Of a DNA stretch of 64,000 nucleotides, positions 2,095-25,276 are shown one piece after another. The stretch is taken from contig CAVTNR010000027.1 of assembly GCA_963736115.1 (NCBI GenBank), positions 96,001 through 160,000 on the forward strand, written 5' to 3'. The notes below the pieces were generated by a model, which saw only the letters and a list, made by a program, of their open reading frames with translations, ran no database searches and was not told the DNA's origin. The position numbers and the translations under genes are program-made. Origin of the DNA: an uncultured bacterium. Lineage in GTDB: Bacteria; Zhuqueibacterota; QNDG01; DTFT01. Within the stretch, counting starts at the first letter, position 1. Every line of letters starts with the position of its first letter.

Positions 2095-2167
2095 AACATC
2101 ATAATCATATCCGACGTTAAAAACAATCGCCCGGAAGGATGAAAAAGTGATTAGTTCTTTTGGACTA
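2095..2167 (-). promoter_or_regulatory. Island promoter 1: paired 16-bp palindromic boxes plus TTGTTT-17-TATGAT
   Basis: Boxes TCGCCCGGAAGGATGA (2127-2142) and TAGTTCTTTTGGACTA (2152-2167), 25 bp apart; -35/-10 on the minus strand upstream of the csbD cluster. Confidence 0.7.
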
Positions 2168-2236
2168 CCGGAACTGACTGAGTGTCCGACGCCAGCTTCT
2201 GTCTCCATAAACAAGAAATCACATCGTGTCGATTTT

Positions 2237-4117
2237 TTAAAACGGCTGCCCAATGCTCACCGAAAATCCGGTTTTCCCCCTGGTAGGACCATTGAGACGA
2301 ATGCCGAAATCCGTGCTCAGCAATCCTATCGGTGTGCGTAACCGTATGCCGGGCCCTGCCGTCCAACGAAGGTCGTTCGCGGTAAATTCCGAACCAGATG
2401 TCCACACATAACCGGCATCGGCAAATCCGGCCACTTTCAACCACTTCGCCGCCAGGAATCGAAGTTCCAGAACATTCAATAAAACCGCAAACCGTCCACC
2501 GACCTCATCACCGACTCCTCCCGGTGCGTATCCTCGAACCGGCCTGATGCTTTCACTTCCGGCATAAAACAGCTCTTGTGGGGGAACCACGGCCTTATCC
2601 GCGCCGTAACCGTTGACATAACCGACTGCCACTGCGGTCGCAGCATGAAGATGACGCACGACTGGAAAATATACCCGCACATCCACCATCAATTTATAAA
2701 AGTGATTGGTCCCGGTTCCGATTAGTCCGGCCAATTCCGCGTCGGAGGTCACCAGCAGCCCTTTGACCGGATCGAATAGATTGTCCCGTAAATCAACTGT
2801 AAAGCCGGCGCCGAAACTCTGGGTATTGTTATGATGGGCCATCCGTGACAGTCCGGATAGCTGAGGCTTAACAGTCAATCCATTGACCCATTCAAATGAG
2901 GTAAACATTCGGTATCCGAAGTTCCATTTTGTTTTTCCGAAAAGCGAAAGTGTCAATCCCTTCAGATCCCCGGTAAAGGTGACTTCATCGTGGTGTTCGC
3001 CGTACGCTTCCGCCTCAGCCGTCGGCGCAAGCATGAAGAACCATGGTGCCGTATAGTGCAGATGCAGACTCTTGATAAGCCGGTTGTACTTTCCGTAAAG
3101 ACCGATCGTCCTGCCCAACCCCAGCACATTGCCGTAAGATGTCTGCATCGATAATCGAACTCCTTCGTAAGTTCCATAGCCGATTCCACCCTGTATCCTG
3201 TAAAAATCCGCTTCCTCAATATGAATATTCACCGGGAGTGAAACCGGACCGCTACTTCGGTGCAACTTCTGCGAATCCGCGGCAGTCGCTGTAATCTTCA
3301 CATATTTAAACATGCCTGTTTCCAACATCCGGCGCTCGGATCGTTGTATGTGTCCTGTGGTTAAGGTGTCCCCACGGTGAAAGGTCATCCCCCGTTTGAC
3401 AATGACCGTACGCAGTCGTTTTGAGCCGCTTACCTTCAGTGTACCGGCCTTTGCCAGCGGCCCCTGATCGATCAAAAATGTGACGGTTGCCTTATGCGCA
3501 ACCGAATCCACCCGGTCGTTTCTTTCGACGGAAGACAACGGGTAACCGCCGGCCGCCATGCCGTCAAGGATGCGCTGCTGATCAACTGAAAGCCTCAATA
3601 TTGAATACGGCGTAAGCGGTTTCACTTGAATAAAACGCTTGATTTCCATTTCCCCGAATGTGCCGGATCCCTCTATTTTCACTGAATCGATGAGAGTTTG
3701 CGATCCTTCACTGATCTCAATGCTGACCGTCATGCGGCGTGATGACGGGTCTCTCATAAGTTTACCCGCCCTCACCTGAATGCCGAGAAATCCCCGGTCG
3801 CGATACAAATAATCGATGGCATCGATATCCGCGTTCAACAGGGATCGTGAAAACTTCACCTTTCGAAAGAGACGGCTCGGCCTGGTATCCATCCCGCCGA
3901 GTAGATCCGAAGAAGATATCGAAGTATTGCCGGTGAAATGGACCGCTTTGACGAGCCATGGCCCCTGACTGCGGCGATTTTCCGCGGCGGAAACGCAGAT
4001 CAACGCGCCAAAGATCAAGACAATTCCCGTCATCCACCGCAGTACTGCGGATGACCGGTCGTGACGGGACCGTCTTAGATCCGTCTTAACGATTCTCATG
4101 TCTGTGTCCGTTCGCAT
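2237..4117 (-). CDS. tamA: Omp85/BamA-TamA family protein (POTRA domains + beta barrel)
   Basis: POTRA-like repeats, VRGY motif, TPIG motif and terminal F; adjacent to tamB. Confidence 0.85.
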   Translation of the reverse strand: MRTDTDMRIVKTDLRRSRHDRSSAVLRWMTGIVLIFGALICVSAAENRRSQGPWLVKAVHFTGNTSISSSDLLGGMDTRPSRLFRKVKFSRSLLNADIDAIDYLYRDRGFLGIQVRAGKLMRDPSSRRMTVSIEISEGSQTLIDSVKIEGSGTFGEMEIKRFIQVKPLTPYSILRLSVDQQRILDGMAAGGYPLSSVERNDRVDSVAHKATVTFLIDQGPLAKAGTLKVSGSKRLRTVIVKRGMTFHRGDTLTTGHIQRSERRMLETGMFKYVKITATAADSQKLHRSSGPVSLPVNIHIEEADFYRIQGGIGYGTYEGVRLSMQTSYGNVLGLGRTIGLYGKYNRLIKSLHLHYTAPWFFMLAPTAEAEAYGEHHDEVTFTGDLKGLTLSLFGKTKWNFGYRMFTSFEWVNGLTVKPQLSGLSRMAHHNNTQSFGAGFTVDLRDNLFDPVKGLLVTSDAELAGLIGTGTNHFYKLMVDVRVYFPVVRHLHAATAVAVGYVNGYGADKAVVPPQELFYAGSESIRPVRGYAPGGVGDEVGGRFAVLLNVLELRFLAAKWLKVAGFADAGYVWTSGSEFTANDLRWTAGPGIRLRTPIGLLSTDFGIRLNGPTRGKTGFSVSIGQPF

Positions 4118-4130
4118 TCCCTCACCCGAA

Positions 4131-7100
4131 TCAATGACTATATCGAAACTTCAGATCCATCCCCCCCAGGGCCTGCTGGTCGGTCTCTGCTTCGAAGTAC
4201 AGGAACGGCAGAAGCCGGTAGGACACCAGCATCGTCTGTTGGCTGAGGGTGGATAAACCCGTTCGATAGGTTATAATGACACGGGACGATACCTGCTTGG
4301 TAACCGCAAGCTGGACCTCATCGGAAGCGGGGTCGAAAATATTTCCGTAGATGCCAACGCTTTCCACGTTCAGAAACCGGGCCAATTTACGAGACCCGAA
4401 TCCGGAAAGCTGCTGGCTTACCAGGGACCCTGTCCGTGGACCCAGGTCGGTTCCCGACCCCATCTGGATCGTGCCGAATGTCATTAAAGAGATGATTTGC
4501 TGCTGCGGCAGCGAGGGGACAGCGGACAATGTGACCATCGGATTGGACAGATCTCCCTTGATGAGGAGTGTGATTTCGTAATCCTCCTGTCCTCCCTGAG
4601 GCGGACTCCATGAAACGGCCGATACGGCCGTCACATCGAGAGTTGGATTGATTCTCTGAGGATCGTACTGCCTGATCGTTCCCTGGGTGATGGTGAATTT
4701 TCTGTCAAGATAATAGACAAAACCATTCAAAACCTGTAACTGTCCGGCTATCGATGGTCTGTCCGGTTTGCCTGTGATGGTGACGGTTCCGTCGAGCAGC
4801 ATGTTGCCCAGATTCGAGTCAAGGGTCAGATTGCTGTTCAGATTCACGGCAATTCGCATGACGGATTTTTTAAAAAGTGGATTTGAAGGACGGAGGCTTT
4901 GCGGCGCTTTTCGATTAATCCATTCACTGATGTCGATAATCGAAAAATCCTGCGTCAATCGCGTATTTGCCAGCAGCACATTCATTTTCAGGGTGATCAG
5001 GGAATCCATCGTCAGATGAATATCACCGGTCTGGATGCCGAGATCCAGATTGTCGGTGCACCCGCCGAGACGAACATCCCTGAGTTGAATGTCACTTTGG
5101 GCGTGAGAGACACCCTTGGCATCAAGCACCGCCCTGCCGGTGCCCGTGACATGCCCGCCGCCCCAGTCGGCGCGAAGCCGGCGGAGAAGGATCACACTGT
5201 TTTGAAAATCAACATCCATGGACAAATGATCGAGCGGCCGATCACATTCATAAAGGCTGCATTCTCCATTTTGAAGCAAAAGCGTACCATTCGCCTGACG
5301 AATGCCATCGACCGTCTTAATATCTACACTCCCTGATATCAACCCTTTCTGAATGGTCACAGGATCAGGCATCAGCGGCTGAACAATGCTGAACGGCATG
5401 GCTGTCAATGTTGCGGTGAGTCGGCTGTTTGGTTCGATTGAAAAACCTTTTTTTCTGGTAAACGGTACCATGGCTTTTATGTCGGCCACGCCTCCGTGGG
5501 CGAGTAAATGCAACGAATCCAGAATCAACACATCGTTGACAATCGATCCGCTTCCTGAATAGGAGTTGATCAGATCTCCCTTGTATCGGATGGAATCGCC
5601 GTTCAGGTTAAAACGAGCGACAGGTTGAATCAGCGGTCCGTCGACTTGCAGGTCAAGAACCGCCCGCCCGACTTTCATTCGATTCCTCTTTACCGTCAGG
5701 CTGTGATTGATGATCGTCGACCCGCACGCTCCCGCCCATTCGCCATTGGTTTTGATGAACCTGCCGTGAAGGCTGATGATTCCAAGCGATTGTACCGAAG
5801 GAGCGAATAGCTTGACCATCACCCCATAAGAAACCGAATCACCGCTTATTGTGATGACCGATCCGTCTCTCAATGCCTCAACGCCGCTTGAAAGTGCCTG
5901 CCATGAAACAGGCAAATGGGCGGTGATCCGGAGCGGTTTTACGGATCCTTGTTGACCGGCATTCAGCGTCATGGTCGCAATGCTGTCGGCAAACGCCATC
6001 TCGCCTTTCGAAGTAAGGACGAGGCCGTTTGAAACCGGGTGATCAAATAAAAAATCCAGATGCAGTTTTGGATTCTCGGATTCTCCTGATAGTGCGCCAT
6101 GCACGTTCAGAGATCCCTGAAATCTCTTTGCCTGTGGAAACCAGGGCGTGAAGACCATGGGATCCAGGTCCGCTGCGGTTCCCGTGGCTTCTACCGAATG
6201 TGGAATGAACCGAGCTTCCCCGAGATCGAGCCTGCTGATTGATTGTCGAGACTTAATTTACTGTCGGTATTTACCGATACAATGCGATTGGCCCAGGAAG
6301 CTTTACCGTCACTCGAAATTTCGGATTTCCCGCGTTTGATCGTAAGCGACTGCCAGCGCACGCTCTGATTCACATACCGGAAGTGTGTATAAATCGTATC
6401 GGCCCGGTATCGGCCGTAGGAGCATGGGCCCGTCTGAATATCGCCGGCGATTATAAGGGAATCGAAACGCCCGCTGACACCCGCCTTGGCCCAAACCTTG
6501 CCACTGAATTCGCCCGGTATCCTTCCCTGCAGAGCTTTTGTGATCGATCCGTTTGCAGATATGGAGGATGTGTCGATAAACAGAACCCTGTTTCTCAGCG
6601 CAAACCGACCCCATAGTCTAGTAATCTGAATATCACGCCAGAACAAGCTGCCGCTTTGTATGGTGGCTGAAATCGCGGGATTGCGCAAGGTTCCGCTCAT
6701 TCGGGCATCAGCGATTATCGAACCTCGGACAGTTTCGTTTGATAAAATTCTCACGATTCGATCGATTGAATCCGCCTGAACATGGAATGAACCGTCAATC
6801 GCTCCACGATTGGTAACCCAGCCCTTTCCCTTCGCTTCGTAATCCGGTTCCATTTTCGCAATCAGGTTCCACTTATTTTGAGCCATCCGTAACATCAGTT
6901 TTCCCTGTTTTGCCTCAGTCGTGTTCGTCAACCTTCGGATATCCGCCGACAGAGTGTCCGGAAGTTGCCGAAGTCCTGATCCGGCAGCGTATAAAACGAC
7001 ATCGGCGAGGAACGCGGGGCGATAGTTTCTCATCATCGAAGGCGATATGAATTGCTGCAGATTCACCTTCTCCGCCGACGCCGTGAGGGTGTACGTTCCG

Positions 7101-8257
7101 ACAGCCGGCGACGAAAACAAATGTTCGACTTTCACTCGGGCTGAAGCATCGACAGTCCCAATCGGTGACCATAAACGCGCTTGTCCTCGAAGGAGGCTAT
7201 TGGAATAACGTGCCTTCATTAAGATGGAATCCGTTTTCACAAGCCCTGACTGCAACCCATACCCTGTCAATGTCAGATCCAGGACAGGCCGCTGAAATGT
7301 CCCGTTCATGACACCCTTTGCTTTTATTGTACCGACTGGCTTCAATGACGGAACATTTGTATATAACTGAGCGAAACCTGCCGTGAAGACTTCAACATTT
7401 ACGGTCAGGTTCCATGTCTTATCGGTTGAAAAAGGGATCGTTCCATTCAACAGAAGCTGAATTGAATCGCCCCGTACCTCGGCTTTGCTGAATTGCAAAG
7501 ATGTCGGTCCGACGTTTCCGTGAACATCGATCGTGTTCACACCTCCTCTCCACACGGGGGAGGATATTTTCCCGGTGCCGGTTATTATGATAAATGAAAG
7601 TGAATCCGACTGAATCCATTTCAATCGGGCCGAGAGGATAGTCCCTGCAGCTATTATTTTTATTGCACTGTCGGCAAAGGATACCGCGCATCGTTCTAAT
7701 TCGATCGTTCGGACCAGCGGCCTGGCTGGGCCAGTCATTTTCTTCCGGTTTTCATTTGTCGTCCTCATCATCCCGCCGATATCAATCGGTCCCAAAAATA
7801 AGCCCTGATTCTTTTTATGGAGTTCTCCGGTGAAACCCTCAATTTTTATTGAACGCAGCTCAAAATGTCCATTCAAAAAAGAAATCAGATTGACTTTTGC
7901 CGCAATCCGTTCCACCTGAATCAGTTCACTCCTGATGTCAGGATCGGATAATACAGTTTTTTTTAAAACAATTCCGTTCCAGATATCGAACGTAATCGCT
8001 CCGATGTCGGCATTGCAGGCTAGACTCGATGATATTCTGCGGTTAAAAAAGGACAGCAGTTCCCCTTTAAAAGGCGGGATGGCAGGCAGGATTGATAAAA
8101 CAACAATCAAACCGATCAGCAGGAGTCCAATTCTGCAGGCAATGTGGCTGAATCGCCTGCTTCGCGGCTTTCGGCGCGGTCGCGGCGGAAGACCTTCCGG
8201 CTTCTGTTGCTCAACAGGATCTCGTTTGACGGAAATTTTTCTTCTCCCTCTTATCAT
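4131..8257 (-). CDS. tamB: TamB/AsmA-like protein, split by a single-base frameshift near 6218-6221
   Basis: ORF 6191..8257 has an N-terminal TM and AsmA-like beta repeats; ORF 4131..6158 has a DUF490-like C-terminus. One extra G in the GGGG run joins the frames (SISG-EARFIPHSVEATGTAADLDPMVF). Confidence 0.8.
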
Positions 8258-8332
8258 CCTCCTTATCAGCCGCCTCTCCGCAGTGCGCTATTTCGTAGTC
8301 GAGAGACTCGTATTCAATCTGAAGTCCCTCAT

Positions 8333-8530
8333 TTATTTATTTCCCTTGTATGGTTCCTGCTTCGGGATCTTCAGTTTCAATTCACGCAGAACTCTGTCCG
8401 TCACGGTCGACCCGAAAGAAGGATGGTTTAAAGCCGTTATATTATAGAGGGCAATCGCCACTCCGGACAGCGTTTCCTGCCATCCGAGGAACACTGCATC
8501 CGAAACCGATTTTATCTTGTGTTTCAACAT
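8333..8530 (-). CDS. Small hypothetical protein (65 aa)
   Basis: Co-oriented with the island; plausible globular sequence (FLGWQET...LYNIT...HPSFGSTV). Confidence 0.5.
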   Translation of the reverse strand: MLKHKIKSVSDAVFLGWQETLSGVAIALYNITALNHPSFGSTVTDRVLRELKLKIPKQEPYKGNK

Positions 8531-8622
8531 GGTTCAATCTCATTGTGTATTTTTGATGTCCATTTCCGGTATCTCGAATTTCGGTATACAATTCCGAATC
8601 ATCGGTTGGCTGATTCCTCCAT

Positions 8623-8662
8623 AAAAACGGGGGCAGGAGTACAATTTTGCTCCGTGCCCCCG
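8623..8662 (-). terminator. Intrinsic terminator
   Basis: GC stem CGGGGGCA...TGCCCCCG followed by T5 on the minus strand, downstream of 8764..9405. Confidence 0.6.
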
Positions 8663-8763
8663 CCATGTTCTTCATCGGACCTCGTCACCCTGATTCTTTT
8701 ACTCGGCCTATGGATTGAATGACAATGAAGGGAATCAGACCAAAAGCGTCATCCCGCTCTCAC

Positions 8764-9405
8764 TCATCTGATGTAATAGGAGATTCCAGCCCCTGCATAA
8801 TGGAATGAGTCATCGTTCAGCGCGACACCAAACTCGGCGACGAAATCGATTGTATCGGAAATCCGGTATTCGATTCCCGGCACGAGGTGCAATGTCGTGA
8901 ACGAATCGTCGACGCCCGACGGAACATCCTTGATCTTCTCGAACGATACATCCAGTGCGCCGCACAGTTCCAGCTTATCGCCTATGAGGCTGCTCAACTG
9001 CGGGATTATTTCGAATCCCATCAAGTCATAACCATTATCTTTACCAGCCAACCAGTTCAAGCCTCCGGTTAAAGAGAAATCCATACTTGAACTCTGTTCA
9101 GTGCCTCTGAGTATCCAGTATTCTCCATCCACGCCGATCAATGTTCCATTATTCAGGAAGCCCACCTTCGCTTCGACATCGAAATGTGGGGTGAATGCAT
9201 AACCCCCGCGAAGCCCCACTCCGAGCTCATTGTCCGCTCCGTTTTTACCGAACACCATGATCGGGGCCGCCATCAGCTTATATGTTCCCTGATTCATCGT
9301 CTCGGCTGACTGAAGCACACCGATGGTCTGAGCCGATACCGATCTCGAGAAACACAGCCCGATCGCGACGGTAAAAAGGATCCGCCCGATTTGAGAGATT
9401 CTCAT
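8764..9405 (-). CDS. Outer-membrane beta-barrel protein
   Basis: Signal peptide, amphipathic strands, aromatic C-terminal strand (AGISYYIR). Confidence 0.75.
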   Translation of the reverse strand: MRISQIGRILFTVAIGLCFSRSVSAQTIGVLQSAETMNQGTYKLMAAPIMVFGKNGADNELGVGLRGGYAFTPHFDVEAKVGFLNNGTLIGVDGEYWILRGTEQSSSMDFSLTGGLNWLAGKDNGYDLMGFEIIPQLSSLIGDKLELCGALDVSFEKIKDVPSGVDDSFTTLHLVPGIEYRISDTIDFVAEFGVALNDDSFHYAGAGISYYIR

Positions 9406-9460
9406 GTCCTGTCCTCCTGAAATGAATGATTGAACGGTTTCTTAAATACTTGCAGAATTA

Positions 9461-9529
9461 AAGTATACATGTTCCGCGCCATAATCAATCGCCCAAAGGG
9501 ATGAAAAAGGATCCGGTTCTTTTGGACTA
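9461..9529 (-). promoter_or_regulatory. Island promoter 2: paired boxes abutting TTGATT
   Basis: TCGCCCAAAGGGATGA (9489-9504) and CGGTTCTTTTGGACTA (9514-9529), 25 bp apart; TATACT/TACTTT -10 candidates downstream. Confidence 0.7.
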
Positions 9530-9610
9530 TGACCCGTTACTACAAATCCGATCGCGGCACGGCCGTCTTTTCTTATATTCCAAACAGCCTTGCCCGATGA
9601 CTGATTTTTG

Positions 9611-10414
9611 CTAATTTTTATAATACGTCAACGCTTCTTTCATTTCTGATTTTATCTTCCGAATGCGGCTCTCATCGGAAGGATGCGTACTCAGGAACTC
9701 AAGGGATTGATTATTGGAACTTTGCGACATACGTTGCCAGAAATCGATTGCTCCGTTTGGATCGTAACCTGCCATAGCCATGAAAATCAGTCCGAGATGA
9801 TCGGCCTCACCCTCCTGCATCCGGCTGTAGGGCAGCATGGCTCCGATCTGGACTCCCGCGCCGAAAAGGGACATCCAAATGTCCTGCGTCTGTTTGGGTT
9901 TCTGCTGGAGCGCGGCAGCAAGGGTTTGGCCGCCCAACTCGGCAATCAGCGCCTGACTCATCCGCTCATTGCTGTGCTTGGCTACGGCATGGGCGATCTC
10001 GTGGCCCATCACAACCGCCAGCCCATTTTCAGTGCGTGTTATGGGAAGAATTCCGGAATACACGACGACTTTTCCTCCCGGCATGCACCAGGCGTTGACT
10101 TCCTCGTTCTCGATGAGGTTGAATTCCCACGCGAATCCGTTCAGATCGTGCGACAGATTTTTCCTGGCGAAATAATCCGCCACTGCGTTCTGGATTTTCC
10201 TTCCGACTCCCTTGACCAGATTGGTCTGAGCCGTGTTGTTACTCAATCGGTTCTCCTTCAGGAACTGGTCGTACTGGAGAAAGCTTGTGGAAAGCATGTC
10301 GGTGTCCGAAACCAGGGAAAGCTGACGTCTTCCGGTGAGCGGAACGAGACTGCAGGCCGCCAGCAAAAGCGCAGCCGCCATTATGTAAAAGGATCTTGTT
10401 TTGATCTTTTCCAT
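9611..10414 (-). CDS. M48 family zinc metallopeptidase lipoprotein
   Basis: Lipobox LAAC, NAWCMPGG, HEIAH, E-x-EAD and STHP motifs. Confidence 0.92.
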   Translation of the reverse strand: MEKIKTRSFYIMAAALLLAACSLVPLTGRRQLSLVSDTDMLSTSFLQYDQFLKENRLSNNTAQTNLVKGVGRKIQNAVADYFARKNLSHDLNGFAWEFNLIENEEVNAWCMPGGKVVVYSGILPITRTENGLAVVMGHEIAHAVAKHSNERMSQALIAELGGQTLAAALQQKPKQTQDIWMSLFGAGVQIGAMLPYSRMQEGEADHLGLIFMAMAGYDPNGAIDFWQRMSQSSNNQSLEFLSTHPSDESRIRKIKSEMKEALTYYKN

Positions 10415-10456
10415 AATTCACATCCTTTCATGTATTTGTTTATAAAGAGTTCATTC

Positions 10457-11665
10457 CTATATTGAAAAACCCACTTGTGCGTTCAACAATATTCTTGATT
10501 TTTTATGAATGGGGAAAAATGGCGTCATTTCGAGACCGGCGTTGGCTTTCATGCCGAATGGTATCCCGAATCCCCGGATGAGCTCAACGACATCGAGTAA
10601 AATCGATACGGCAAAACCGCCCTGCCCCACGCCCACATCAATCGGTGAATTCACTCCGAATGTGCCAAACCCCAGATTGACGGGGAATCGATGTCCGGAC
10701 GTTGCATTGACATAATAAAAACGGATCATTGCGCTGGACTTGCCGTATTGTATGGTATCCCTCGCCTGTGTGTCATATAAAACCTTTGGGATGGCGAGCG
10801 CGAACCGCGTGACTATTTTAGGTCCTTTGACTCGGAAATAACGCGTAAATGAGTTTAGCCTGTCGTAGGCGCCAATTTTAATGGTATAATCGGGTTTGAC
10901 ATGAACCTTGACGATTGTCCAGCTCGGAAGTGAATCGAGCTGTAAATGGACCTCCTCCAGCTCCTCCGGCAGGATCGCCGCGTAACCGCCGTACGCGGTG
11001 CGGTACTGCGCGAACATGACGCGATCACGATTGGGATCGCCGCAGCTACGAAACGTCAGAACTCGCCGTTCGAACGTATACAATACTTTTTCTTCACGCG
11101 ACATCACCGTCGTCTGAATGGTGACGAATTGCGGCCCCATATTCTGCCGTATCGCGTTCCGATCAAAGATCACTCGAAGCTTTCGTATTCTTTCGCGGTC
11201 GAGAGTGACGGCTGTCCGCGCGCGGTCACTGCCGCTGTCCGGACCCATGCGTACAAATTCTTCGACCTGTTCCACGCCCTGAATCTCTTCGACATTCACG
11301 AAACTGTTTGTTTTATAGAAGAAAAACTGGCCGATTGAATCGACGACCTGCACGAAAACCCTGTATGATTCAGGCGTCACGGATGGAGGGATCACAGCCG
11401 TGTACATATTGTCTCCAACAGGCTTGAACTTCATTCCTTCCATGGTCAGCATGGGAATCACTTTCACGGACGACGTGCTGTCAATGAGTCGAATGGTCAT
11501 CCGAATGGTATCCCCGAAAAAGTACACCCGTTGATCGACTGAGACATCGACACTGACATCCTCAAGGGATGGCCAGATTACCCTTGAAGAATTGGATTGG
11601 GACAATAGAGACTTCACCCCGATCAGGATCAGAACAAACATCAGTTTTATTAATGATTTCGACAT
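10457..11665 (-). CDS. Hypothetical exported protein with C-terminal beta-barrel-like strands
   Basis: Long ORF; signal peptide after ATG 11665; ends in VGFSI. Confidence 0.65.
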   Translation of the reverse strand: MSKSLIKLMFVLILIGVKSLLSQSNSSRVIWPSLEDVSVDVSVDQRVYFFGDTIRMTIRLIDSTSSVKVIPMLTMEGMKFKPVGDNMYTAVIPPSVTPESYRVFVQVVDSIGQFFFYKTNSFVNVEEIQGVEQVEEFVRMGPDSGSDRARTAVTLDRERIRKLRVIFDRNAIRQNMGPQFVTIQTTVMSREEKVLYTFERRVLTFRSCGDPNRDRVMFAQYRTAYGGYAAILPEELEEVHLQLDSLPSWTIVKVHVKPDYTIKIGAYDRLNSFTRYFRVKGPKIVTRFALAIPKVLYDTQARDTIQYGKSSAMIRFYYVNATSGHRFPVNLGFGTFGVNSPIDVGVGQGGFAVSILLDVVELIRGFGIPFGMKANAGLEMTPFFPIHKKSRILLNAQVGFSI

Positions 11666-11820
11666 TTCTTTTCCCGTCGTCAAGTTCCGATCAGTCAAAC
11701 CAAACATGATCCGATGAATCAGATCACTTGCGCATCCCACCCGCTTCGCGGGTCAACGGGGCTTCAATCCCTTGATAAATCACGGAATCGTTTCTTTGTT
11801 CATATTCCTATTCTTTTTAT

Positions 11821-16113: not shown

Positions 16114-16361
16114 CTGGATCCCCCTTTCAGTTAAAGTTACATTTTCAGTTCGGTTCATTTCAACTTTCCTCGTTCTAAAATCCTTCGAAATGTTCGGGGG
16201 GAGCGAGTGACCTCCCCCCATTCCTGTCAATAGACCGGCAGTCCATGCGAAACACACGTTTTTCCTTCTTCATGAATCCACTGCAGTCTGTTTCAAGTCG
16301 TCACTCCATCATTACCCGGGGAACCCGTTTATGCGGGTTCCCCTTCTGTTTGCCGGGTCTG

Positions 16362-17483
16362 CTATTTAACAACGATTTCGAACAGAACGCGCATGTTGGC
16401 CTTTGCCGCATTTGAATAGAGTTCCTTGGGCGCGACTTCATGTTCGGCCGGTTTGGTTTCACCATATCCGATCGTTGTAAGCCGATTCGCCATAATAACG
16501 CCTTCATTCACCAGAAATTCTTCGACGGCTCGAGCCCTTCTTTCGCTCAGTCTTTGATTGTAATCTTCAGTGCCGGAAGCGGAGGTGTACCCTGCAACAC
16601 GGACTTTAGATTCCGGGTTGTTCTTCAGAATCTGGACGCTCTTTTTAAGTATCCGCTTCGCTTCTTCCGTCAGAGTCGACTGGTTAAAATCGAAATGCAC
16701 GTCCTCAAAGGCAAGAATGACGATTTTCGTCTCTTTGGCAAGAACCTGTACCGTCTCTTCGACCTTCGGTTCGGGAACATCAGACACGAGAACGACGACC
16801 TTCGCAGCTGCTCTCGGTTCTTCCATCACAACCGGCGCCGGCCGGGACTTCGACTGACCGCCGAAGGCAAGTACGATTCCTGCGGAAGCATGCACATTGT
16901 GATACCCCTGCTCAAAAGGGAATACCTCGGTGACGAAATTATCCCTGAGATCGAGCCTGAGCGCGAAATGTTCCACAAGCCAGAATTTGGCACCCACCCC
17001 GAAATCAAAGGTGGACATGTCCTGATTCGATATTTTCGGACTGTAGCGGACGCCTCCCAGCCCGGCGACAATGAACGGAGTCAGTCGACGGTCGGGCATA
17101 AAATGATAGACCGCATCGATATGATAGAAGGTAAGGTCCACTTTGTCCATGGGGCTTCTGTACTGGCCTTCCTTGGCTCCCGTTCTGGCTTTATCAAAAA
17201 CATTGCTGTTGACCAGCTCCACAGTGCCTTCGATACCGAAACGCTTCGTAAAATTTAAGCCGATCCGTCCGCCATAGACAGGACTGTTTTCGAGATTCTG
17301 TCTGTCTTCGAAAAAATGGGTGCCGATAAACGGACTCACCTCAACGCTTTTTGCCCGTATCCCCAAGCGACCGGATGATTCGGATCGGTCATCACTGCCG
17401 GATGCAACCGAAGGCAGCCCGGTCACCCACAGAACAGCCGAAGCTGTAATGAAGAATGCCGTTTTCAGTATTTTCATTTTCAT
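16362..17483 (-). CDS. OmpA/OprF-like protein (beta barrel + OmpA_C)
   Basis: Signal peptide, barrel strands, VHFDF and LSERRA motifs. Confidence 0.88.
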   Translation of the reverse strand: MKMKILKTAFFITASAVLWVTGLPSVASGSDDRSESSGRLGIRAKSVEVSPFIGTHFFEDRQNLENSPVYGGRIGLNFTKRFGIEGTVELVNSNVFDKARTGAKEGQYRSPMDKVDLTFYHIDAVYHFMPDRRLTPFIVAGLGGVRYSPKISNQDMSTFDFGVGAKFWLVEHFALRLDLRDNFVTEVFPFEQGYHNVHASAGIVLAFGGQSKSRPAPVVMEEPRAAAKVVVLVSDVPEPKVEETVQVLAKETKIVILAFEDVHFDFNQSTLTEEAKRILKKSVQILKNNPESKVRVAGYTSASGTEDYNQRLSERRARAVEEFLVNEGVIMANRLTTIGYGETKPAEHEVAPKELYSNAAKANMRVLFEIVVK

Positions 17484-17591: not shown

Positions 17592-19688
17592 CTACGGATT
17601 GGTCACTGCATTGAAATCCAATGTTACCGCGGCGATCCTTGTCATGGCTCTTCCCACGAGTGAAGCGCCGGTTTCCAGCGTGACGGATTGATCCGCCATG
17701 ATAGTTCCCTTCATCGCGGCCGTGGTCCCGATCGTCGCCGAAGTGCCGACCTGCCAGAAGACATTCTTCGCCTGCGCACCGCCGGCCAGTATCACCTGGC
17801 GACCGGACGTCACTGTGAGCGAGGATGGGATCTGGAAGATGAAAACGCCTTCCGAATTGCCCTGCGCATCGAGGGTCAGGTCTCCTGACGAGATGGCCAG
17901 GGTGGAAGTGGAGGTATAAACTCCGGGAGTGAGAGTCTGTCCTCCGATGTTCCCCGATACTGCGGCACCGGGAGCCCGTCCGGCCGCGTCGTTATAAGCG
18001 CTCGTCAGACAGGATTTGGCGTTGTTGACTTCCGCATCATTGATGCGTATCGTCCCGTTCACGATTCCCGGCGGGAATCCGGTCACCGCGCTACCCGGAC
18101 TCAACCCAAGATCTCCGTTCACGATGGTATTGCCGGTGTTGGTCACAGTCGAACCTGCCAGAATCGGGAAACCGGAGGCACATCCAAGATTGACCATCGC
18201 GGGTCCAGGAGGCGGCAGTGCGGCACCCGTGGTAAATTGCCACACATAGTCGCTGGCCATAGCATTGCCCGCGAGATCCTTGGCTCCGGTTGTAATCGTC
18301 GCCGTATAGGTGGTGTTGGCAGCAAGACCGGCCTCAGGTACAAATGTTCCACCCGTACCCGCGTAGGATACCGTTCCGGATACCGGCGTAAGCCCTTGTT
18401 TTAAAGTATATGTGACTGTGGTGATCGTCAACGGATCCATCGCCTCGCTGAAGAATGCCGTGATGAACTGGTTCAAAGGAACGCCTGTGGCATTATTCTC
18501 AGGATCCGTGGAAATGACCGTGGGTGGAACAGCGTCCAGCCCAGCGCCCGTTGTGAAACTCCACACATAGTTAACGGCCATGGCGTTGCCTGCAAGGTCC
18601 TTGGCTCCGGTCGTAATCGTGGCCGTATAGGTGGTATTGGCCGCAAGATTGGCCGCTGGAGTGAATGTTCCGGCCGTTCCCGCATACGTCACCGTGCCCG
18701 CTACCGGCGTGGTCCCCTGCTGCAAGGTGAATGTGGCCGTGGTGATCGTCACCGGGTCCATCGTCTCGCTGAATGTGGCGACGATCTTCTTATTGAGAGC
18801 CACATTCACGGCGAGATTCGCCGGATCCGTGGAGATGACGGTGGGTAGAACGGCGTCCGGCGCAGCGCCCGTGGTAAAGCTCCACACATAGTTTACGGCC
18901 ATGGCATTGCCTGCAAGGTCCTCGACTCCGGTTGTAATCGTGGCTGTATAGGTGGTATTGGAGGCAAGATTGGCCGCTGGAGTGAATGTTCCGGTCATTC
19001 CCGTATACGTAACCGTGCCGGATACCGGCGTGGTCCCTCGCTTGAGGGTGAATGTGGCTGCCGTGACCGTCAACGGGTCCATCGCTTCGCTGAAGGTTGC
19101 GGTAATTTTCTTGTTGAGGGCCACATTCGTGGCCAGATTCACCGGATCCGTGGAAATGACGGTGGGCGGAGCCGCGTCCGGCGCATTACCGGTGGTAAAG
19201 CTCCATACATAGTTGTGTTCCATCGCATTTCCCGCAAGATCCGTGACACCGCTGGTTATCGTCGCCGTATAAGTGGTGTTGACCGCAAGATTGGCGGCCG
19301 GTTTGAAGGTTGCCACCAGGCCTGCATAGGTCACGGTTCCGGATACCGGCGAAGTACCCTGCTTAACGGTGAATGTGGCCGTAGAGATAGATGATGGGTC
19401 CATCGCTTCACTGAAGGTGGCACTGATAGCAGTGTTGATCGCGACGCCTGTGGCCGCATTGACCGGGACCGTAGAACTGACCGTGGGTGCGGTTTTATCC
19501 GAACCGCCCGTTATTTCCGATCCATCCCATAGGCCGCATCCTGCCATAATAACCATCATGAGCATGGTTATGAGGATTGGACCAATGGAGTTGCGAAGCG
19601 AGCCGAACAATCGTTTTGTTCCGGTTATCTGTCTTGGACAGAAAATCCGGTCTCTGTCGGTTTTAAAATCTCTTGATTTTGTGTTCAT
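17592..19688 (-). CDS. Lipoprotein with four Big_5 (SbsA Ig-like) repeats and a C-terminal DUF3494 ice-binding-like domain
   Basis: MAGC lipobox; four ~107-aa repeats (D..PTV.ST...ATFSE.MDP...YVWSFTTG, 321-nt period); DUF3494 motifs ILAGSTVTNTG, TLTPGVY, VFIFQI, NVFWQVG. Confidence 0.9.
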   Translation of the reverse strand: MNTKSRDFKTDRDRIFCPRQITGTKRLFGSLRNSIGPILITMLMMVIMAGCGLWDGSEITGGSDKTAPTVSSTVPVNAATGVAINTAISATFSEAMDPSSISTATFTVKQGTSPVSGTVTYAGLVATFKPAANLAVNTTYTATITSGVTDLAGNAMEHNYVWSFTTGNAPDAAPPTVISTDPVNLATNVALNKKITATFSEAMDPLTVTAATFTLKRGTTPVSGTVTYTGMTGTFTPAANLASNTTYTATITTGVEDLAGNAMAVNYVWSFTTGAAPDAVLPTVISTDPANLAVNVALNKKIVATFSETMDPVTITTATFTLQQGTTPVAGTVTYAGTAGTFTPAANLAANTTYTATITTGAKDLAGNAMAVNYVWSFTTGAGLDAVPPTVISTDPENNATGVPLNQFITAFFSEAMDPLTITTVTYTLKQGLTPVSGTVSYAGTGGTFVPEAGLAANTTYTATITTGAKDLAGNAMASDYVWQFTTGAALPPPGPAMVNLGCASGFPILAGSTVTNTGNTIVNGDLGLSPGSAVTGFPPGIVNGTIRINDAEVNNAKSCLTSAYNDAAGRAPGAAVSGNIGGQTLTPGVYTSTSTLAISSGDLTLDAQGNSEGVFIFQIPSSLTVTSGRQVILAGGAQAKNVFWQVGTSATIGTTAAMKGTIMADQSVTLETGASLVGRAMTRIAAVTLDFNAVTNP

Positions 19689-20509: not shown

Positions 20510-21265
20510 TCATTGCGCCAAGCGCGTTACAGCATTCGTTAAATCCGGTTTTCTTTGATTTGAATCGATCTCATTGAATTCGGTCGCTATAAAAATATAT
20601 CCTAAATCATCTTTGCCCAGGAACAGAATGAATAATTGAAGCTCCCCGCCGCAAGCGGCGGGGAATCTTCTATCTGTAGAGAAGAGACATCTGATATTCG
20701 CTCGCTTACCCCGCGGCAAGCCGCGGGGAATGCGCTCGCTGTCAGATTCAATTGCATCATTTCTACCCAGGTTGCGGTTGATGTGCGGTAAAAGCTTCTC
20801 CTGAACGGGGATCCAATGCACGTTCATGCCTTCCGTTACCTTGATTTCCTGCCGATAGAGAGACGCGAGAGTCGGTTCGATTTGGAGTGTTTGCACCCAC
20901 AATTTGATGACGTTTTTTCTGTTTCCGGAAATGGGTCTCCGAACGGCTGTGTAGTTGCATGAAACCCGATACTTTGCAGTCTGACACTCAATTTCAACTC
21001 GTTCAAGGGTTTTTTTCTGTGCCGCTGGATAGACTGAGTGATTCCGTTCTTCCGTGATTATGTCCTGTAACGTTGTTTCGATGTATGAGGCGTAATTGAA
21101 CTCCGCCGATCCACAGGCCGTCCAAGCCCACAAAACAATAACCGTGGCGATCGAAAACTTCCTTTTGTGTTGATTCATTGGATCTTGCTCATGTTTGTTG
21201 TTTAAGAGAATGCCTGAATATTCCATGACATGATTTTTTTCTATTCGTTTCCGATCAGAGTTCAT
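20510..21265 (-). CDS. Hypothetical exported protein carrying a 37-aa in-frame mobile-element insert
   Basis: ORF is intact; residues SDSERIP...ACGGELQ are encoded by element 20636..20746. Confidence 0.65.
   Translation of the reverse strand: MNSDRKRIEKNHVMEYSGILLNNKHEQDPMNQHKRKFSIATVIVLWAWTACGSAEFNYASYIETTLQDIITEERNHSVYPAAQKKTLERVEIECQTAKYRVSCNYTAVRRPISGNRKNVIKLWVQTLQIEPTLASLYRQEIKVTEGMNVHWIPVQEKLLPHINRNLGRNDAIESDSERIPRGLPRGKRANIRCLFSTDRRFPAACGGELQLFILFLGKDDLGYIFIATEFNEIDSNQRKPDLTNAVTRLAQ
20636..20746 (-). mobile_element. 111-bp non-autonomous IS200/IS605-like palindrome-associated element (PATE)
   Basis: Two subterminal hairpins (20644-20663, 20709-20728); inserted 3' of TTGAA, ends in TTCAA, no target duplication; guide tetranucleotides CATT and GATT fit the IS608 guide-pairing rule. 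Confidence 0.8.
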
Positions 21266-21972
21266 TCAGACTGAATCATAGCGATCCGATCAAGGGTCAC
21301 CAATGAACCGCTTTTCAGAAAAATCACGCTACCTCCCAACTGCAGAACTTTTTCAATGATCAGGTCGACCACGTCATCGATGACCTGCCAGAGGTTGACG
21401 TTCTTTGATACAATCAGGAGATGATCCTTTTTCCGAATACTGCCCCTCACATGAAAATCTTCCTCTACATATAGAATGGAACCTGCCGCCGTCTCTACGA
21501 ACCGACTGATGGCTTCGATTCCGTAAACGACTTTCTTGTTTTTGCCCGCCGCTTCCAGATCATGGATGGCGTTTTTATCAGTACCGGCAATCGCATCCTT
21601 AACGACGGGCCATACAATCTTTCCCAAATCGTGACTTGATGTAAGGGAGTAATCTCCTTCAACAGTGCCGAGGAAAGAGTCCATGTGAGCAGACAATGTT
21701 TTAATTTTATCGAGAAAACTCTTTTTACCGACTGCAACCCATCGAAGTGGATCTTGAAGGAAATAATGGGAAAATCGCCGATCCGTTTGACTGCAAATCT
21801 CCAGCAATTGGCTGTCATTGGAGGCTAACTTGATAGAATTGTCTAAATCGACTGAAATTTTAAATGGGAAATTCAGATTCTGAATATCAATGAGTTTTTC
21901 GCGAAATCCTTCATATAACCTGATTGTCCGTTCATTCAACGAAAGAACGTAATAATGAATGCTGGGCTTCAT
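21262..21972 (-). CDS. baeRF3-like (bacterial archaeo-eukaryotic release factor family) protein, short form
   Basis: YYVLSLNE...RLYEG...FPF, G.VEGDY, LYVEEDF and DDVVDLIIEKVL..GG.V.F motifs. Confidence 0.65.
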   Translation of the reverse strand: MKPSIHYYVLSLNERTIRLYEGFREKLIDIQNLNFPFKISVDLDNSIKLASNDSQLLEICSQTDRRFSHYFLQDPLRWVAVGKKSFLDKIKTLSAHMDSFLGTVEGDYSLTSSHDLGKIVWPVVKDAIAGTDKNAIHDLEAAGKNKKVVYGIEAISRFVETAAGSILYVEEDFHVRGSIRKKDHLLIVSKNVNLWQVIDDVVDLIIEKVLQLGGSVIFLKSGSLVTLDRIAMIQSE

Positions 21973-22061: not shown

Positions 22062-22131
22062 TAATTAATCATATTCAACCGCAAAAACAATCGGCCAAAG
22101 GATTGAAAAGAGAGCTAATTCATTCGATCAA
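22062..22131 (-). promoter_or_regulatory. Island promoter 3: paired boxes abutting TTGTTT
   Basis: TCGGCCAAAGGATTGA (22091-22106) and a degenerate TAATTCATTCGATCAA (22116-22131), 25 bp apart. Confidence 0.6.
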
Positions 22132-22474: not shown

Positions 22475-22494
22475 AAAAGCACTCGCTTTAAGTT

Positions 22495-24258
22495 TCAATG
22501 TCCGTTCGTTAATCGAATCGCTTTCTTATTCTGTGTTCTTTTTAGTATGTGATCTGAATCGCTTATCCTGCTTTTCGCCATTTTTATTTTAGATTGATCG
22601 ATACTGTCATTTCTTTGATTTTCAATTCCCATTTCCCTGATTGCTTCCGCTTCATCAGTCTCATATTCAGATCGCAAGAGAGCGATCTGTGCTTCCATCA
22701 CTTCACGTCTGCGTTTTAGACCGACTTTTTTTCTGACCATCTCCTGTTGTCGCAGTTCATGATCCGCATCATCCTTGATTTCCTGCGCCAATCGCGCCGA
22801 ACCCGTCAATACGCCTTCCGTTCCGACATAGACATCGAGCAGTTTGATTCCATGATCGGTCAGTCTGAACTCCCGAATCTGATTGGAATGCGCCATACCA
22901 CGCGATTTCAACACGTATAATCCCCGGTTCCGCTCTCCTCCAATTTCAATATCACGCAGCAACAGCCACGTATCGATCAGAGATGAAACATAAACATCGT
23001 TATTCTCGTCGTTATCGCCTGCGACAGTGAGACTGGTGAAGAACGCCGTGATTTTGTTCATTTTCAGGAAATCCACAAGACGCAGCAACATCGTCTTGAC
23101 CTCCGTCATATTGTCTCCCATGCCGAAAGCATTGATGGGATCGAGAATCACGATATCGGGTTTGAACCTGTTAATCAGCTTGATAATCGTCGTCAAGTGC
23201 GTTTCAAGTCCGTAAAGTGTGGGACGGGTCGCATGAAACTGCAGCAATCCTTTTTTAATCCAGGGTTCCAGATCGATCCCGATGGATCGCATATTACGCA
23301 CGAGCTGACCGGGCGATTCTTCAAAGGTGAAGAAGAGCGTTTTTTCCTTTCGTTTGCACGCAGACTGGACAAAATGCGCCGCGATGCTGGTCTTTCCCGT
23401 GCCTGCGGTTCCTGAAACGAGTACGGTGCTGGAGCGAAAGTAACCTTTTCCGGTGAGCATGGTATCTAGACGCGGAATTCCGGTGGAAATTCTTTCACGG
23501 GAGGAAGAGTAATTCAGGCCCAGTGAAGTGACGGGCAGAACCGAAAAACCGTCTTCATCGATGAGAAAAGGGTACTCGTTCGTTCCATGTGTGGATCCCC
23601 GGTACTTGACAATACGAAGCCGTCGTATCGAGGATTGATCATTCACGCGATGGTCCAGCAGAATGACGCAATCGGATACATACTCTTCCATTCCTTGTCG
23701 CGTCAGGGATCCCTCGCCCCGCTCAGCCGTCACGATGGTGGTGACGCCTTTCATCTTCAGCCAGCGGAATAAACGCCCCAATTCAATCCGTAGGATCTGG
23801 TCATTGGGCAGTGTGGAAAAGAGCGATTCCAGCGTATCCAGCACAACACGCTTCGCACCGATACTCTCAATGGCGTCATGGATCCTGACAAACAGACCTT
23901 TCAAGTCGGTTTCGCCGATTTGTCCTTTTTCGGCCCGTTCAATGTTCATGTGCACAACCCGGATCTTTTTACGGGCACTCAGGTCCTTCAAATCGAATCC
24001 CAAAGAGGCGGCGTTTTCCGCAAGTTCTTTCTCCGTTTCCTCGAATGAAATGAAAACGCCCGGTTCATGCTGCTGAATGGCACCCCGTACGAGAAACTCC
24101 ATCGCGAGGAGGGTTTTTCCGCATCCCGCTCCCCCGCAAACAAGCGTCGGTCTTCCCTTCGGTAATCCTCCGCCGGTGATTTCATCCAATCCTTCGATGT
24201 GGGTGGGAGATTTGGGAAGCATAGGACGTTGGACGGTTTTTTTTGTTTTATTCATCAC
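22495..24258 (-). CDS. kaiC: KaiC double-domain ATPase/kinase (KaiC2-like, C-terminal coiled-coil tail)
   Basis: Walker A motifs GGAGCGKT and GTAGTGKT, EE catalytic pairs, KYRGSTH, SS phosphosite pair (VSSLIDTW), KSRGMAHS, charged helical tail. Confidence 0.95.
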   Translation of the reverse strand: MMNKTKKTVQRPMLPKSPTHIEGLDEITGGGLPKGRPTLVCGGAGCGKTLLAMEFLVRGAIQQHEPGVFISFEETEKELAENAASLGFDLKDLSARKKIRVVHMNIERAEKGQIGETDLKGLFVRIHDAIESIGAKRVVLDTLESLFSTLPNDQILRIELGRLFRWLKMKGVTTIVTAERGEGSLTRQGMEEYVSDCVILLDHRVNDQSSIRRLRIVKYRGSTHGTNEYPFLIDEDGFSVLPVTSLGLNYSSSRERISTGIPRLDTMLTGKGYFRSSTVLVSGTAGTGKTSIAAHFVQSACKRKEKTLFFTFEESPGQLVRNMRSIGIDLEPWIKKGLLQFHATRPTLYGLETHLTTIIKLINRFKPDIVILDPINAFGMGDNMTEVKTMLLRLVDFLKMNKITAFFTSLTVAGDNDENNDVYVSSLIDTWLLLRDIEIGGERNRGLYVLKSRGMAHSNQIREFRLTDHGIKLLDVYVGTEGVLTGSARLAQEIKDDADHELRQQEMVRKKVGLKRRREVMEAQIALLRSEYETDEAEAIREMGIENQRNDSIDQSKIKMAKSRISDSDHILKRTQNKKAIRLTNGH

Positions 24259-24409
24259 ATGCAGCCTTTCAGATTATCAATTTTTCAAAAACCATGGAAC
24301 ACTTTCCGTTTTCAATAAATCAATCAGTTGTCAATCGACACGTCGTCACAAGCGCGAATATGACCCATTCCCATCAAAACAAGACTGTTTTCCCACATCA
24401 CATGGATCA

Positions 24410-24478
24410 ATCTTCATAAAAACAACGATAAAATCAATACTCCAGAAGCATGAAAAAGGGTCTAATCCCAAAGGATGA
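24410..24478 (-). promoter_or_regulatory. Island promoter 4 (kaiC): paired boxes abutting TTGATT
   Basis: TACTCCAGAAGCATGA (24438-24453) and TAATCCCAAAGGATGA (24463-24478), 25 bp apart. Confidence 0.65.
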
Positions 24479-24619
24479 TTGATTTATCACTGCGATGGAT
24501 AAAGGCTTCGGTGTAATCGTGCAATAAATTGGAGGAGGGAGTGTGAGCGAGAAGATTTGGAGGTTAAAATAGCGTAATGATGGGTTGGTGAGGGGCAATT
24601 GAGAAGTAGGTGAATAGGA

Positions 24620-25276
24620 TCAGCCGGATCCATCCTTGCGGACAAAGGCGGCTATCTGCAGTCGGGTGTTGAGTTCCAATTTTTCCAGAATGTTGTGCAC
24701 ATGGCTCTTGACTGTGAAAGTGGCGATGTTCAGGCGTTCGGCGATTTCCTTGTTGCTCAGGCCCTCCGCGATTAAACCGACTATTTCATGTTCCCGATTC
24801 GTAAACTGGATGGATTTGGAAGGGATCTCTTTTCCTTCCCTGATCGCGGTCTCTATAATCTGACTGAACAGGGATTGGGTCAGGCGCGGCGGAAGCACCT
24901 TCTCGCCGCTTGCGACGGTTTTAATCGTTTTTTTCCAATCATCCCAGGGGGCGTTTTTTAAAATGAATCCGGATCCCCCGGCTTTTACGAATTCGACGAT
25001 GTCCACATGGTCGGGAAGGATATCCATTGCGATGACCTTCGCATCCGACACTTCTTCCCGAAGCAGGGACATCAATTTCAGGCTGTTCTCTTTTTCCAGA
25101 CCGAGGTCCAACAGAATGATATCGGGTTGTTTTTTCATCTTCTTCATCTGCACTATGGAATCGCCGTCTTCGGATTGCGCAACGACCTCGAAATCGTCGT
25201 GTTTATTGAGCATACCTGCGATGCCCTCACGCAGAAGGCGGTTATCCTCAATCAATAAAATCCGAATTTTCCCCAT
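24620..25276 (-). CDS. NarL/FixJ-family response regulator (REC + LuxR HTH)
   Basis: LLIEDN, PDIILLD, GFILK and GLSNKEIAERLNIATFTVKSHVHNILEKL motifs. Confidence 0.95.
   Translation of the reverse strand: MGKIRILLIEDNRLLREGIAGMLNKHDDFEVVAQSEDGDSIVQMKKMKKQPDIILLDLGLEKENSLKLMSLLREEVSDAKVIAMDILPDHVDIVEFVKAGGSGFILKNAPWDDWKKTIKTVASGEKVLPPRLTQSLFSQIIETAIREGKEIPSKSIQFTNREHEIVGLIAEGLSNKEIAERLNIATFTVKSHVHNILEKLELNTRLQIAAFVRKDGSG

Follow-up and report, generated by a model that had tools for sequence, protein, structure and literature searches.

Five copies of a 44-bp composite operator, and no more, occur in the genome of an uncultured bacterium of the Zhuqueibacterota (GCA_963736115.1). Four of them lie within 23 kb in the window, i.e. 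the 64,000-nucleotide stretch of contig CAVTNR010000027.1 analysed here, in front of stress, envelope and kaiC genes and close to the gene of an orphan NarL-type response regulator. Judging from sequence comparisons across phyla, this regulator probably activates a clustered dormancy/general-stress and envelope regulon through the operator, with kaiC as a conserved target. An initial annotation of the window had described paired 16-bp boxes at four promoters and proposed a self-contained island, including kaiC and the envelope genes tamBA, that is driven as a whole by this regulator. The observation itself was confirmed and widened, and its reading of regulator, operator and kaiC as a target is supported, while tamBA membership and self-containment had to be corrected, so that the proposal is partly supported overall.

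A 44-bp composite operator

All four sites consist of two 16-bp boxes that start 25 bp apart (2127/2152, 9489/9514, 22091/22116 and 24438/24463), and the proximal box directly abuts a -35 element on the minus strand (TTGTTT, TTGATT, TTGTTT and TTGATT, respectively), exactly as the initial annotation had placed paired boxes next to TTG(A/T)TT in four intergenic regions. The minus strand is the coding strand, as all genes between positions 1 and 27000 of the window are encoded on it. Together with a fifth site on contig C10, these are copies of one composite operator with the coding-strand consensus TAGTCC-AAAA-GGACTA-gtTCCTTTT-TCATCC-cTTT-GGnCGA-TTG. Within this genome, the distal box is a 16-bp inverted repeat (best form TAGTCC-AAAA-GAACTA), the spacer between the boxes comprises nine bases ending in CCTTTT or the near variants CACTTTT and CTCTTTT, and the proximal box is a 16-bp repeat (TCATCC-N4-GGGCGA) followed directly by TTGTTT or TTGATT.

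A 44-bp matrix built exclusively from other genomes (77 sites in 49 loci) recovers all of them, confirming that the four promoters share one operator. P1 (2124..2167, minus strand like the following) scores 60.3 bits and has its -35 element TTGTTT at 2121-2126 and its -10 element TATGAT at 2098-2103, and P2 (9486..9529; 52.6 bits) is followed by TTGATT at 9483-9488 and TACTTT at 9460-9465. P3, which heads the baeRF3 run (22088..22131; 48.4 bits), has TTGTTT at 22085-22090 and TAATTA at 22062-22067. P4, the kaiC promoter (24435..24478; 41.0 bits), is composed of a distal box at 24463-24478 and a proximal box at 24438-24453, with TTGATT at 24432-24437 and a weak -10 element, AAGATT, at 24409-24414. 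The fifth operator (G000, this genome, contig C10:15400, minus strand) also has a distal box, again offset by 25 bp.

The composite operator is far more than a chance arrangement of letters. In a scan of the 3.34-Mb genome with this matrix (about 6.7 million positions), only the five operators scored highly (41.0-60.3 bits), the next best position reached 4.4 bits, and the maximum in three Markov-1 simulated genomes was 12.9 bits. Likewise, a 31-bp matrix derived from the four window sites found the untrained fifth site at 33.8 bits in the genome scan, with the next best at 20.4. Within the window, a core pattern of 33 nt, with 2 mismatches allowed, matched the four sites only (0.10 expected; 0/100 shuffles reached 4). 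The expected enrichment over shuffled DNA therefore holds for the composite element and not for the single 16-bp consensus, which at up to 1 mismatch gave 13 matches vs. 7.9 +/- 3.0 in shuffled sequences, with 7 of 100 shuffles reaching 13. The island can be called self-contained at most roughly because the fifth site is located on C10.

The conserved unit exceeds the two palindromes. A logo compiled from 112 sites of related loci shows that conservation of the spacer (..TCCTTTTT) and of the ATTG at the -35 element equals that of the boxes, that G11, T15, A16, C20, T24-T26, C27, A28, C31, G36 and A41-T43 are invariant or nearly so, and that the operator core is invariant across phyla. The same logo contains a -10-like element, TAnnnT (T65, A66, T70), 17 bp after TTGatt (positions 42-47) and outside the scanning matrix. 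The promoter thus appears to be of the housekeeping (sigmaA) type, with a -35 element that forms the end of the operator. With approximate limits of -76 and -33, the operator has its proximal box centred near -43. This matches a class II-like geometry, with the predicted activator site abutting the -35 element and the -10 element at the canonical 17-bp spacing. A generic promoter scan of positions 1-12000 listed 17 promoter-like sites vs. 13.2 expected and no operator promoter among them, because the latter match the promoter consensus too poorly.

Two other origins of the conserved unit were considered and rejected. A small plus-strand open reading frame, with GGATGAAAAAG as ribosome-binding site followed by an ATG, is incompatible with the differing frames after the ATG and an immediate stop in site 1. 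A repeat or mobile element does not agree with unconserved flanks, a fixed orientation to the genes and a conservation across phyla that is restricted to functional positions. The fifth operator heads two genes without family assignment (109 and 169 amino acids; C10:14523-15448, locus L029), with a weak FtsL-like hit as their sole match (2e-4), and is conserved together with both genes in genome G002.

The NarL-type regulator as candidate binder

The proposed binder of the operator is an orphan NarL/GerE-type response regulator of 218 amino acids (24620..25276, minus strand; Pfam Response_reg 6.8e-15 and GerE 2.3e-17), with VraR (8.6e-32) and NarL (3.3e-31) as nearest solved structures, both in full-length alignments. 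Its receiver residues E10, D11, D57 and K107 coincide with those of NarL in the alignment and are conserved in 78-79 of 79 orthologues. All 79 orthologues, at 50-94% overall identity, share the recognition helix T188-V-K-S-H-V-H-N-I-L-E-K199 without change. This invariance matches that of the operator across phyla and was hence counted in favour of a pairing of the two. NarL binds inverted heptamers in a 7-2-7 arrangement, and the 16-bp inverted repeats with half-site TAGTCC fit this arrangement. The residue before receiver position 85 is an invariant Met across the orthologues.

The 79 orthologue loci (regulator at 50-94% identity plus flanks) come from metagenome-assembled genomes with record titles such as candidate division KSB1, Krumholzibacteria, Calditrichaeota, Gemmatimonadota, Zixibacteria, Ignavibacteria, Bacteroidota and others. 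Using a site threshold of >20 bits, we found an operator within 600 bp after the regulator stop codon and on the same strand, which we defined as adjacency, in 56 of the 79 loci, and at least one operator anywhere in the locus in 64. The regulator loci amount to 761 kb and contain 115 operators, 108 of them co-oriented with the regulator. Regulator and operator also co-occur on the level of genomes. Among 167 genomes from the phylum of the window, the strict pattern occurs in 14 of the 18 regulator-positive genomes vs. 6 of the 149 regulator-negative ones, 4 of which appear spurious. Of the four genomes with the regulator but without the pattern, two do contain the operator when scored with the matrix (L059/L061; L063). 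In a second phylum, sampled around a closed Ignavibacteriales chromosome (151 genomes), the pattern is present in 9/13 regulator-positive vs. 4/138 regulator-negative genomes, and 52 of 56 pattern matches fall into the former. One-sided Fisher tests gave 1.2e-12 and 5.2e-9 for the first and second sample, values that overstate the association since related genomes do not count as independent samples. Upstream of the regulator, the neighbouring genes vary across 68 loci, and no other DNA-binding gene recurs there except for copies of the same family. Adjacency, co-occurrence in two phyla and the invariant helix make the adjoining NarL-type regulator by far the best candidate binder, in line with the initial annotation.

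Locus pair L059 and L061, located about 14 kb apart on one contig, contains two regulator copies, each followed by an identical operator (58.2 bits), which points to a recent duplication of a regulator-operator-baeRF3 module. The regulator of the window is an orphan in its genome. No kinase was found among the window genes, and for the kinases that adjoin the regulator in related loci (L096, G167, L100, L113), this genome has no orthologue but only proteins of generic similarity (22-37%). Of the 68 related loci, 3 have a kinase gene next to the regulator on its upstream side, that of L100 being a HisKA_3 kinase. No linked NarL-type kinase was found outside the arrangement of loci L100 and L127, which share the order KaiC (58-62% identical), KaiB, HisKA_3/PAS kinase and regulator(s). 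In the window, a gene for a B12-binding radical SAM protein (25523..26977, minus strand) that is located upstream of the regulator has no operator in front of it, and its homologues in related loci have one upstream in 4 of 15 cases.

Predicted target genes in the window and in relatives

The operator recurs in front of the same genes. With an operator counted when it lies within 450 bp upstream of a homologue, 13 of 16 KaiC, 15 of 19 baeRF3 and 6 of 7 homologues of a 166-amino acid protein are preceded by one. Among the first open reading frames behind 103 sites, KaiC (13 loci), baeRF3 (12) and a second regulator copy or receiver-like fragment (12) are the most frequent, followed by B12-binding radical SAM proteins (6 loci), CsbD (6) and the 166-amino acid protein (5 sites in 4 loci), with fewer cases of OmpA, M48, beta-barrel, C11-like and Big_5/Ice_binding proteins. 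The gene content that the initial annotation had assigned to the island, i.e. a CsbD-like cluster, a beta-barrel gene upstream of TamB/TamA, a baeRF3 run, KaiC and a regulator with receiver and GerE domains, was recovered with Pfam.

The kaiC gene (22495..24258, minus strand) encodes a long, C-terminally extended double-domain KaiC of the KaiA-independent type with 587 amino acids (two Pfam KaiC stretches, 4.8e-106; NCBIfam PRK09302 715 bits). Its best solved relative is the 568-amino acid KaiC of 8dba, 8fwi and 8db3 (1.7e-190; residues 15-548 including the C-terminal extension), and the match to KaiC of the S. elongatus type is about 1e-101. We take 8dba to be the hourglass KaiC of Rhodobacter (‘From primordial clocks to circadian oscillators’). 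The Ser-Ser phosphosite is kept, where the 8fwi variant has ‘EE’. KaiB follows kaiC in related loci (L056, L062, L063, L100, L107, L125, L127), and none was found after kaiC or elsewhere in this genome by PF07689 or tblastn searches. The upstream operators in most homologues suggest kaiC as a genuine target of the regulator, as originally proposed. As a part of the system it stood as a recurrent target and not as an essential component: 12 of the 31 regulator-positive genomes of the two samples carry this KaiC, and a genome of the same genus (G001; regulator 94% identical) possesses regulator, operator and baeRF3 without kaiC, which renders kaiC dispensable for the system. Thus, kaiC seems to be an optional but recurrent module.

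The first gene behind P3 encodes a baeRF3-family protein (21262..21972, minus strand; Pfam baeRF_family3 8.3e-17), which matches NCBIfam NF052287 (AOC03_06830 ribosome hibernation factor) at 1.8e-36 and 126 bits, below the cut-off of 330, over positions 114-358 of 361 and without the N-terminal third, and has 8rd8_B (3.2e-5) as its sole PDB sequence match. AOC03_06830 is Balon, homologues of which are reported to be located in stress operons and to be hypoxia-induced in mycobacteria (PMC10901736). The co-oriented run of genes behind P3 (9611..21265, minus strand) continues after baeRF3 with an unknown protein of 251 amino acids and a 69-amino acid open reading frame, a Big_5 and Ice_binding protein (17592-19688), OprF/OmpA (16362-17483), TSP3 and OmpA (14656-16257), Gly-zipper OmpA (13786-14496), the 166-amino acid unknown (12984-13484), a C11-like peptidase (11821-12942), a 427-amino acid unknown and an M48 peptidase (9611-10414). 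From strand and order we infer that these genes are co-transcribed from P3 in this genome. Their order is the same in G001, and in other genomes the 166-amino acid protein (6/7), M48, OmpA, C11-like and Big_5/Ice_binding genes have operators of their own. A protein-atlas search with the 166- and 251-amino acid unknowns gave unnamed clusters only, the first mostly from Ignavibacteriota and Bacteroidota.

Behind P1, the cluster at 2..2043 (minus strand) starts with a CsbD-like gene (about 1840-2043; weak, 8.2e-4), followed by a beta-barrel (1179-1721), a small membrane protein of the lmo0937 family (933-1082; NCBIfam 8e-10), a 72-amino acid membrane protein (681-899) and another beta-barrel that extends past the window edge (2-700). 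The cluster is also present in G001, G002 and G010, and G002 has an orthologous P1 site. The CsbD-like open reading frame (1621-2043, minus strand) comprises 140 amino acids and overlaps the next gene by approximately 100 nt. Its orthologues in G001 and G002 have 75 amino acids, and the 3' part may be untranslated or shifted.

P2 precedes the gene of an outer-membrane beta-barrel protein of 213 amino acids (8764..9405, minus strand; Pfam OMP_b-brl 9.4e-9), which is found behind orthologous operators in G001 and G010, with an orthologue behind an operator in L066 too. Further downstream on the same strand are a TamB-like protein, encoded by two open reading frames in different frames (6191-8257 and 4131-6158), and TamA/Omp85 (2237-4117). 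Inclusion of tamBA in the regulon, as initially assumed, is doubtful because tamBA is located upstream of the operator in G010 and absent from the island of G001. Moreover, a sigma-70-like site at 8509-8537 (minus strand) is a possible own promoter before tamB, and tamBA is probably not a member of the regulon. The TamB orthologue in G010 is a single protein of 1376 amino acids, and the two frames found here (688 and 675 amino acids) could reflect a frameshift, an assembly error or a genuine split.

Islands of relatives resemble that of the window and extend its gene content. In G001, the order is regulator, operator, baeRF3 through M48, operator, beta-barrel and CsbD cluster, with neither kaiC nor tamBA, while a member of the same family (G004) has regulator, operator and kaiC in the order seen here. 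The closed Ignavibacteriales chromosome (G167) concentrates 22 of its 23 pattern matches (27 sites by matrix) in one almost wholly co-oriented 70-kb island (C1:614000-683000; L141-L144). This island contains three regulator copies, a sigma-70-family gene, KaiC, M48 and OmpA-family genes (Pfam), further DUF4398, ferritin-like, MlaEFD, dodecin, Transgly_assoc and PAP2 genes, a glycosyltransferase/GH130/HAD set, and an HPF/RaiA (Ribosomal_S30AE) gene behind an operator. Targets added by relatives thus include HPF/RaiA, DUF4398, ferritin-like and Mla proteins and extra regulator copies, along with YtxH and DUF948 from other loci. A CheB-CheR-PAS fusion and a PAS kinase are also located in the island of G167, and the same pair is found directly upstream of the regulator in L096. 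Taken together, the predicted regulon reads as a general-stress/dormancy programme with a strong envelope component.

Mechanism, alternatives and known systems

In the mechanism that we favour, the regulator (24620-25276) would bind the operator on 7-2-7-like inverted repeats, probably with two or more dimers, and activate transcription from a position abutting the -35 element in the manner of a class II activator. The signal might be phosphorylation of D57 by an unlinked kinase or a small donor, and kaiC expression would be an output of the regulator. Balon-related baeRF3, CsbD-like, lmo0937-family and OmpA-family proteins, beta-barrels, the M48 protease and long-form KaiC would make up the regulon. 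We infer binding, activation as its effect, D57 as the site of the signal and kaiC as output from the sequence comparisons above.

Several observations weigh against this mechanism. The -10 elements of P3 (TAATTA) and P4 (AAGATT) are poor, and the box centres are 25 bp apart, which places them on different helix faces and renders the stoichiometry ambiguous. Receiver position 85 holds Asp in place of the Ser of NarL and the Thr of VraR (D in 72/79 and G in 7/79 orthologues), and Asp at this switch position suggests a non-canonical activation mechanism. Activation is also left unexplained because a search of this genome (87% complete) for a HisKA_3 kinase (PF07730) gave no match. Further, 15 of the 79 regulator loci are without a site above 20 bits, including L070 and L090, which hold <250 bp downstream of the regulator. 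Full two-box operators occur in G010 (95% complete; best regulator identity 36%) and G002 (76% complete), and real-looking operators in G057, G118, G230 and G242, all of them without a detected regulator orthologue. Operators without a detected regulator are due to either assembly gaps or another binder.

An extension of the favoured mechanism, the ‘loop’ of the initial annotation, is a feedback circuit in which the regulator drives kaiC while KaiC, possibly with KaiB, gates the regulator directly or via an unlinked kinase, so that the dormancy regulon would be timed or gated by energy state. We regard this as a tentative possibility. It is consistent with the distribution of the KaiC subclade (>=71% identity), which was found in regulator-positive genomes only (5/5 in the first and 7/7 in the second sample) and adjoins the regulator in 16 loci, while of ten genomes with a more distant KaiC (48-61% identity) one is regulator-positive. 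With a mean column identity of 82%, KaiC is extremely conserved. In L063 and L110, <100 bp without an operator separate the regulator from the kaiC gene that follows it, and L100 and L127 link both genes through KaiB and a HisKA_3 kinase. There are reported precedents as well: KaiA3, with a NarL-type receiver, partners KaiB3-KaiC3 (PMC11372060), and in Pseudomonas, a kinase and a single-domain regulator are bound by KaiC, which also influences stress resistance (bioRxiv 10.1101/2022.01.26.477890). However, the KaiC subclade is missing from 13/18 and 6/13 regulator-positive genomes, the regulon of G001 persists without it, and no KaiB accompanies KaiC in this genome. Since the subclade is confined to regulator-positive genomes, KaiC depends on the presence of the regulator and not the reverse, and the co-occurrence is equally well explained by kaiC being a dependent target gene. 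The predicted complex of KaiC and regulator scored 0.00 in both runs, which bears neither way. In its furthest form, an hourglass-type KaiC, with KaiB in many relatives, might be both target and gatekeeper of a regulator with an atypical receiver and decide the onset of the dormancy programme by ATP/ADP or day-night state, an idea that we consider rather doubtful.

It is unlikely that a different binder, i.e. another transcription factor or a specialised sigma factor, recognises the operator and that the NarL-type regulator is a mere neighbour or member of the regulon. Genomes with operators and no detected regulator orthologue would be explained in this way, sigma-70-family genes are found beside the regulator in L090, L108 and G167, and the two palindromes do not cover all of the most invariant bases (TTTTTCA..C). 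Nevertheless, no other DNA-binding gene is consistently associated with the heterogeneous upstream neighbourhoods, the -35/-10 geometry is that of a housekeeping sigma factor, and regulator and operator co-occur strongly, with an invariant recognition helix. Quite unlikely is repression by a bound regulator that occludes the -35 element until a stress signal arrives, as the contact of the proximal box with the -35 element and an atypical receiver without kinase, which could suit a regulator bound by default, are opposed by an operator that extends upstream to about -76 and not over the -10 element or transcription start, by a partial -35 (TTG) with an often weak -10 as is typical of activator-dependent promoters, and by the many NarL/LuxR-type activators that bind at about -42.

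Activation by the NarL-type regulator would be of interest beyond this window. To our knowledge, no general stress/dormancy switch has been defined for the FCB superphylum, and we know of no SigB or EcfG-type system described for it. The regulator family is a candidate for the master regulator of such a programme, its operator is sharp enough for regulon prediction from sequence (five sites here, 27 in the closed Ignavibacteriales chromosome), and the coherent list of predicted targets includes two kinds of ribosome hibernation factor. Moreover, a highly conserved KaiC subclade is tied to a DNA-binding output regulator, and what KaiBC controls outside cyanobacteria becomes testable. If KaiC was indeed a gatekeeper, a transcriptional output circuit would be defined for the first time for a Kai system outside cyanobacteria, i.e. 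a KaiC-timed programme of ribosome hibernation, envelope remodelling and small stress proteins in lineages labelled KSB1, Krumholzibacteria, Zixibacteria, Gemmatimonadota, Ignavibacteria and Bacteroidota. A full-text literature search, with most subscription journals outside its coverage and hence no proof of novelty, gave no description of the regulator-operator-KaiC module.

Among known Kai systems, cyanobacterial KaiABC-SasA/CikA-RpaA likewise couples KaiC genetically to a DNA-binding response regulator with a large regulon that includes kaiC. However, the cyanobacterial output regulator is of the OmpR type instead of NarL/GerE, the system described here has no SasA, CikA or KaiA and, in this genome, no KaiB, and its KaiC is a long form that is optional for the regulon. 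KaiC of Pseudomonas and KaiA3-KaiB3-KaiC3 of Synechocystis are also reported to tie KaiC homologues to parts of two-component systems and to switching in stress or metabolism. Their response-regulator parts lack a DNA-binding domain, and the accounts cited define neither an operator nor a regulon, while the KaiC partner in the present system is a complete transcription factor with a predicted operator and target set. For Bacteroidetes, only KaiB2/KaiC2-like proteins have been reported (PMC5520375).

In terms of gene content, the predicted regulon resembles those of general stress systems. CsbD, YtxH, DUF948, hibernation and envelope genes belong to the SigB and EcfG regulons. SigB of Bacillus and EcfG/PhyR of Alphaproteobacteria thus share CsbD, YtxH, DUF948, a ribosome hibernation factor and envelope or small membrane proteins with the system described here, but act through an alternative sigma factor, whereas here an activator operator would be placed on housekeeping-type promoters and the genes of the regulon form a physical cluster. 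In its logic, and to some extent in its content, the DosR/DevR dormancy regulon of mycobacteria comes closest. There, a NarL-family regulator likewise acts on palindromic boxes beside the -35 element of many stress and dormancy genes, including one for a Balon-family protein. The half-site AGTCC/GGACT resembles the DosR box, GGGACT-TT-AGTCCC, and dormancy or ribosome hibernation content is shared (baeRF3 here, HPF/RaiA in G167). Nonetheless, the regulator is not an orthologue of DevR, which is its sixth-best solved relative (1.7e-22), and the half-sites are arranged differently, as TAGTCC-N4-GGACTA in two boxes that are always offset by 25 bp and separated by a conserved spacer. The system described here further differs from DosR/DevR in an orphan regulator without linked sensor kinase, Asp at the switch position, KaiC as a predicted target and its occurrence in FCB-group phyla.

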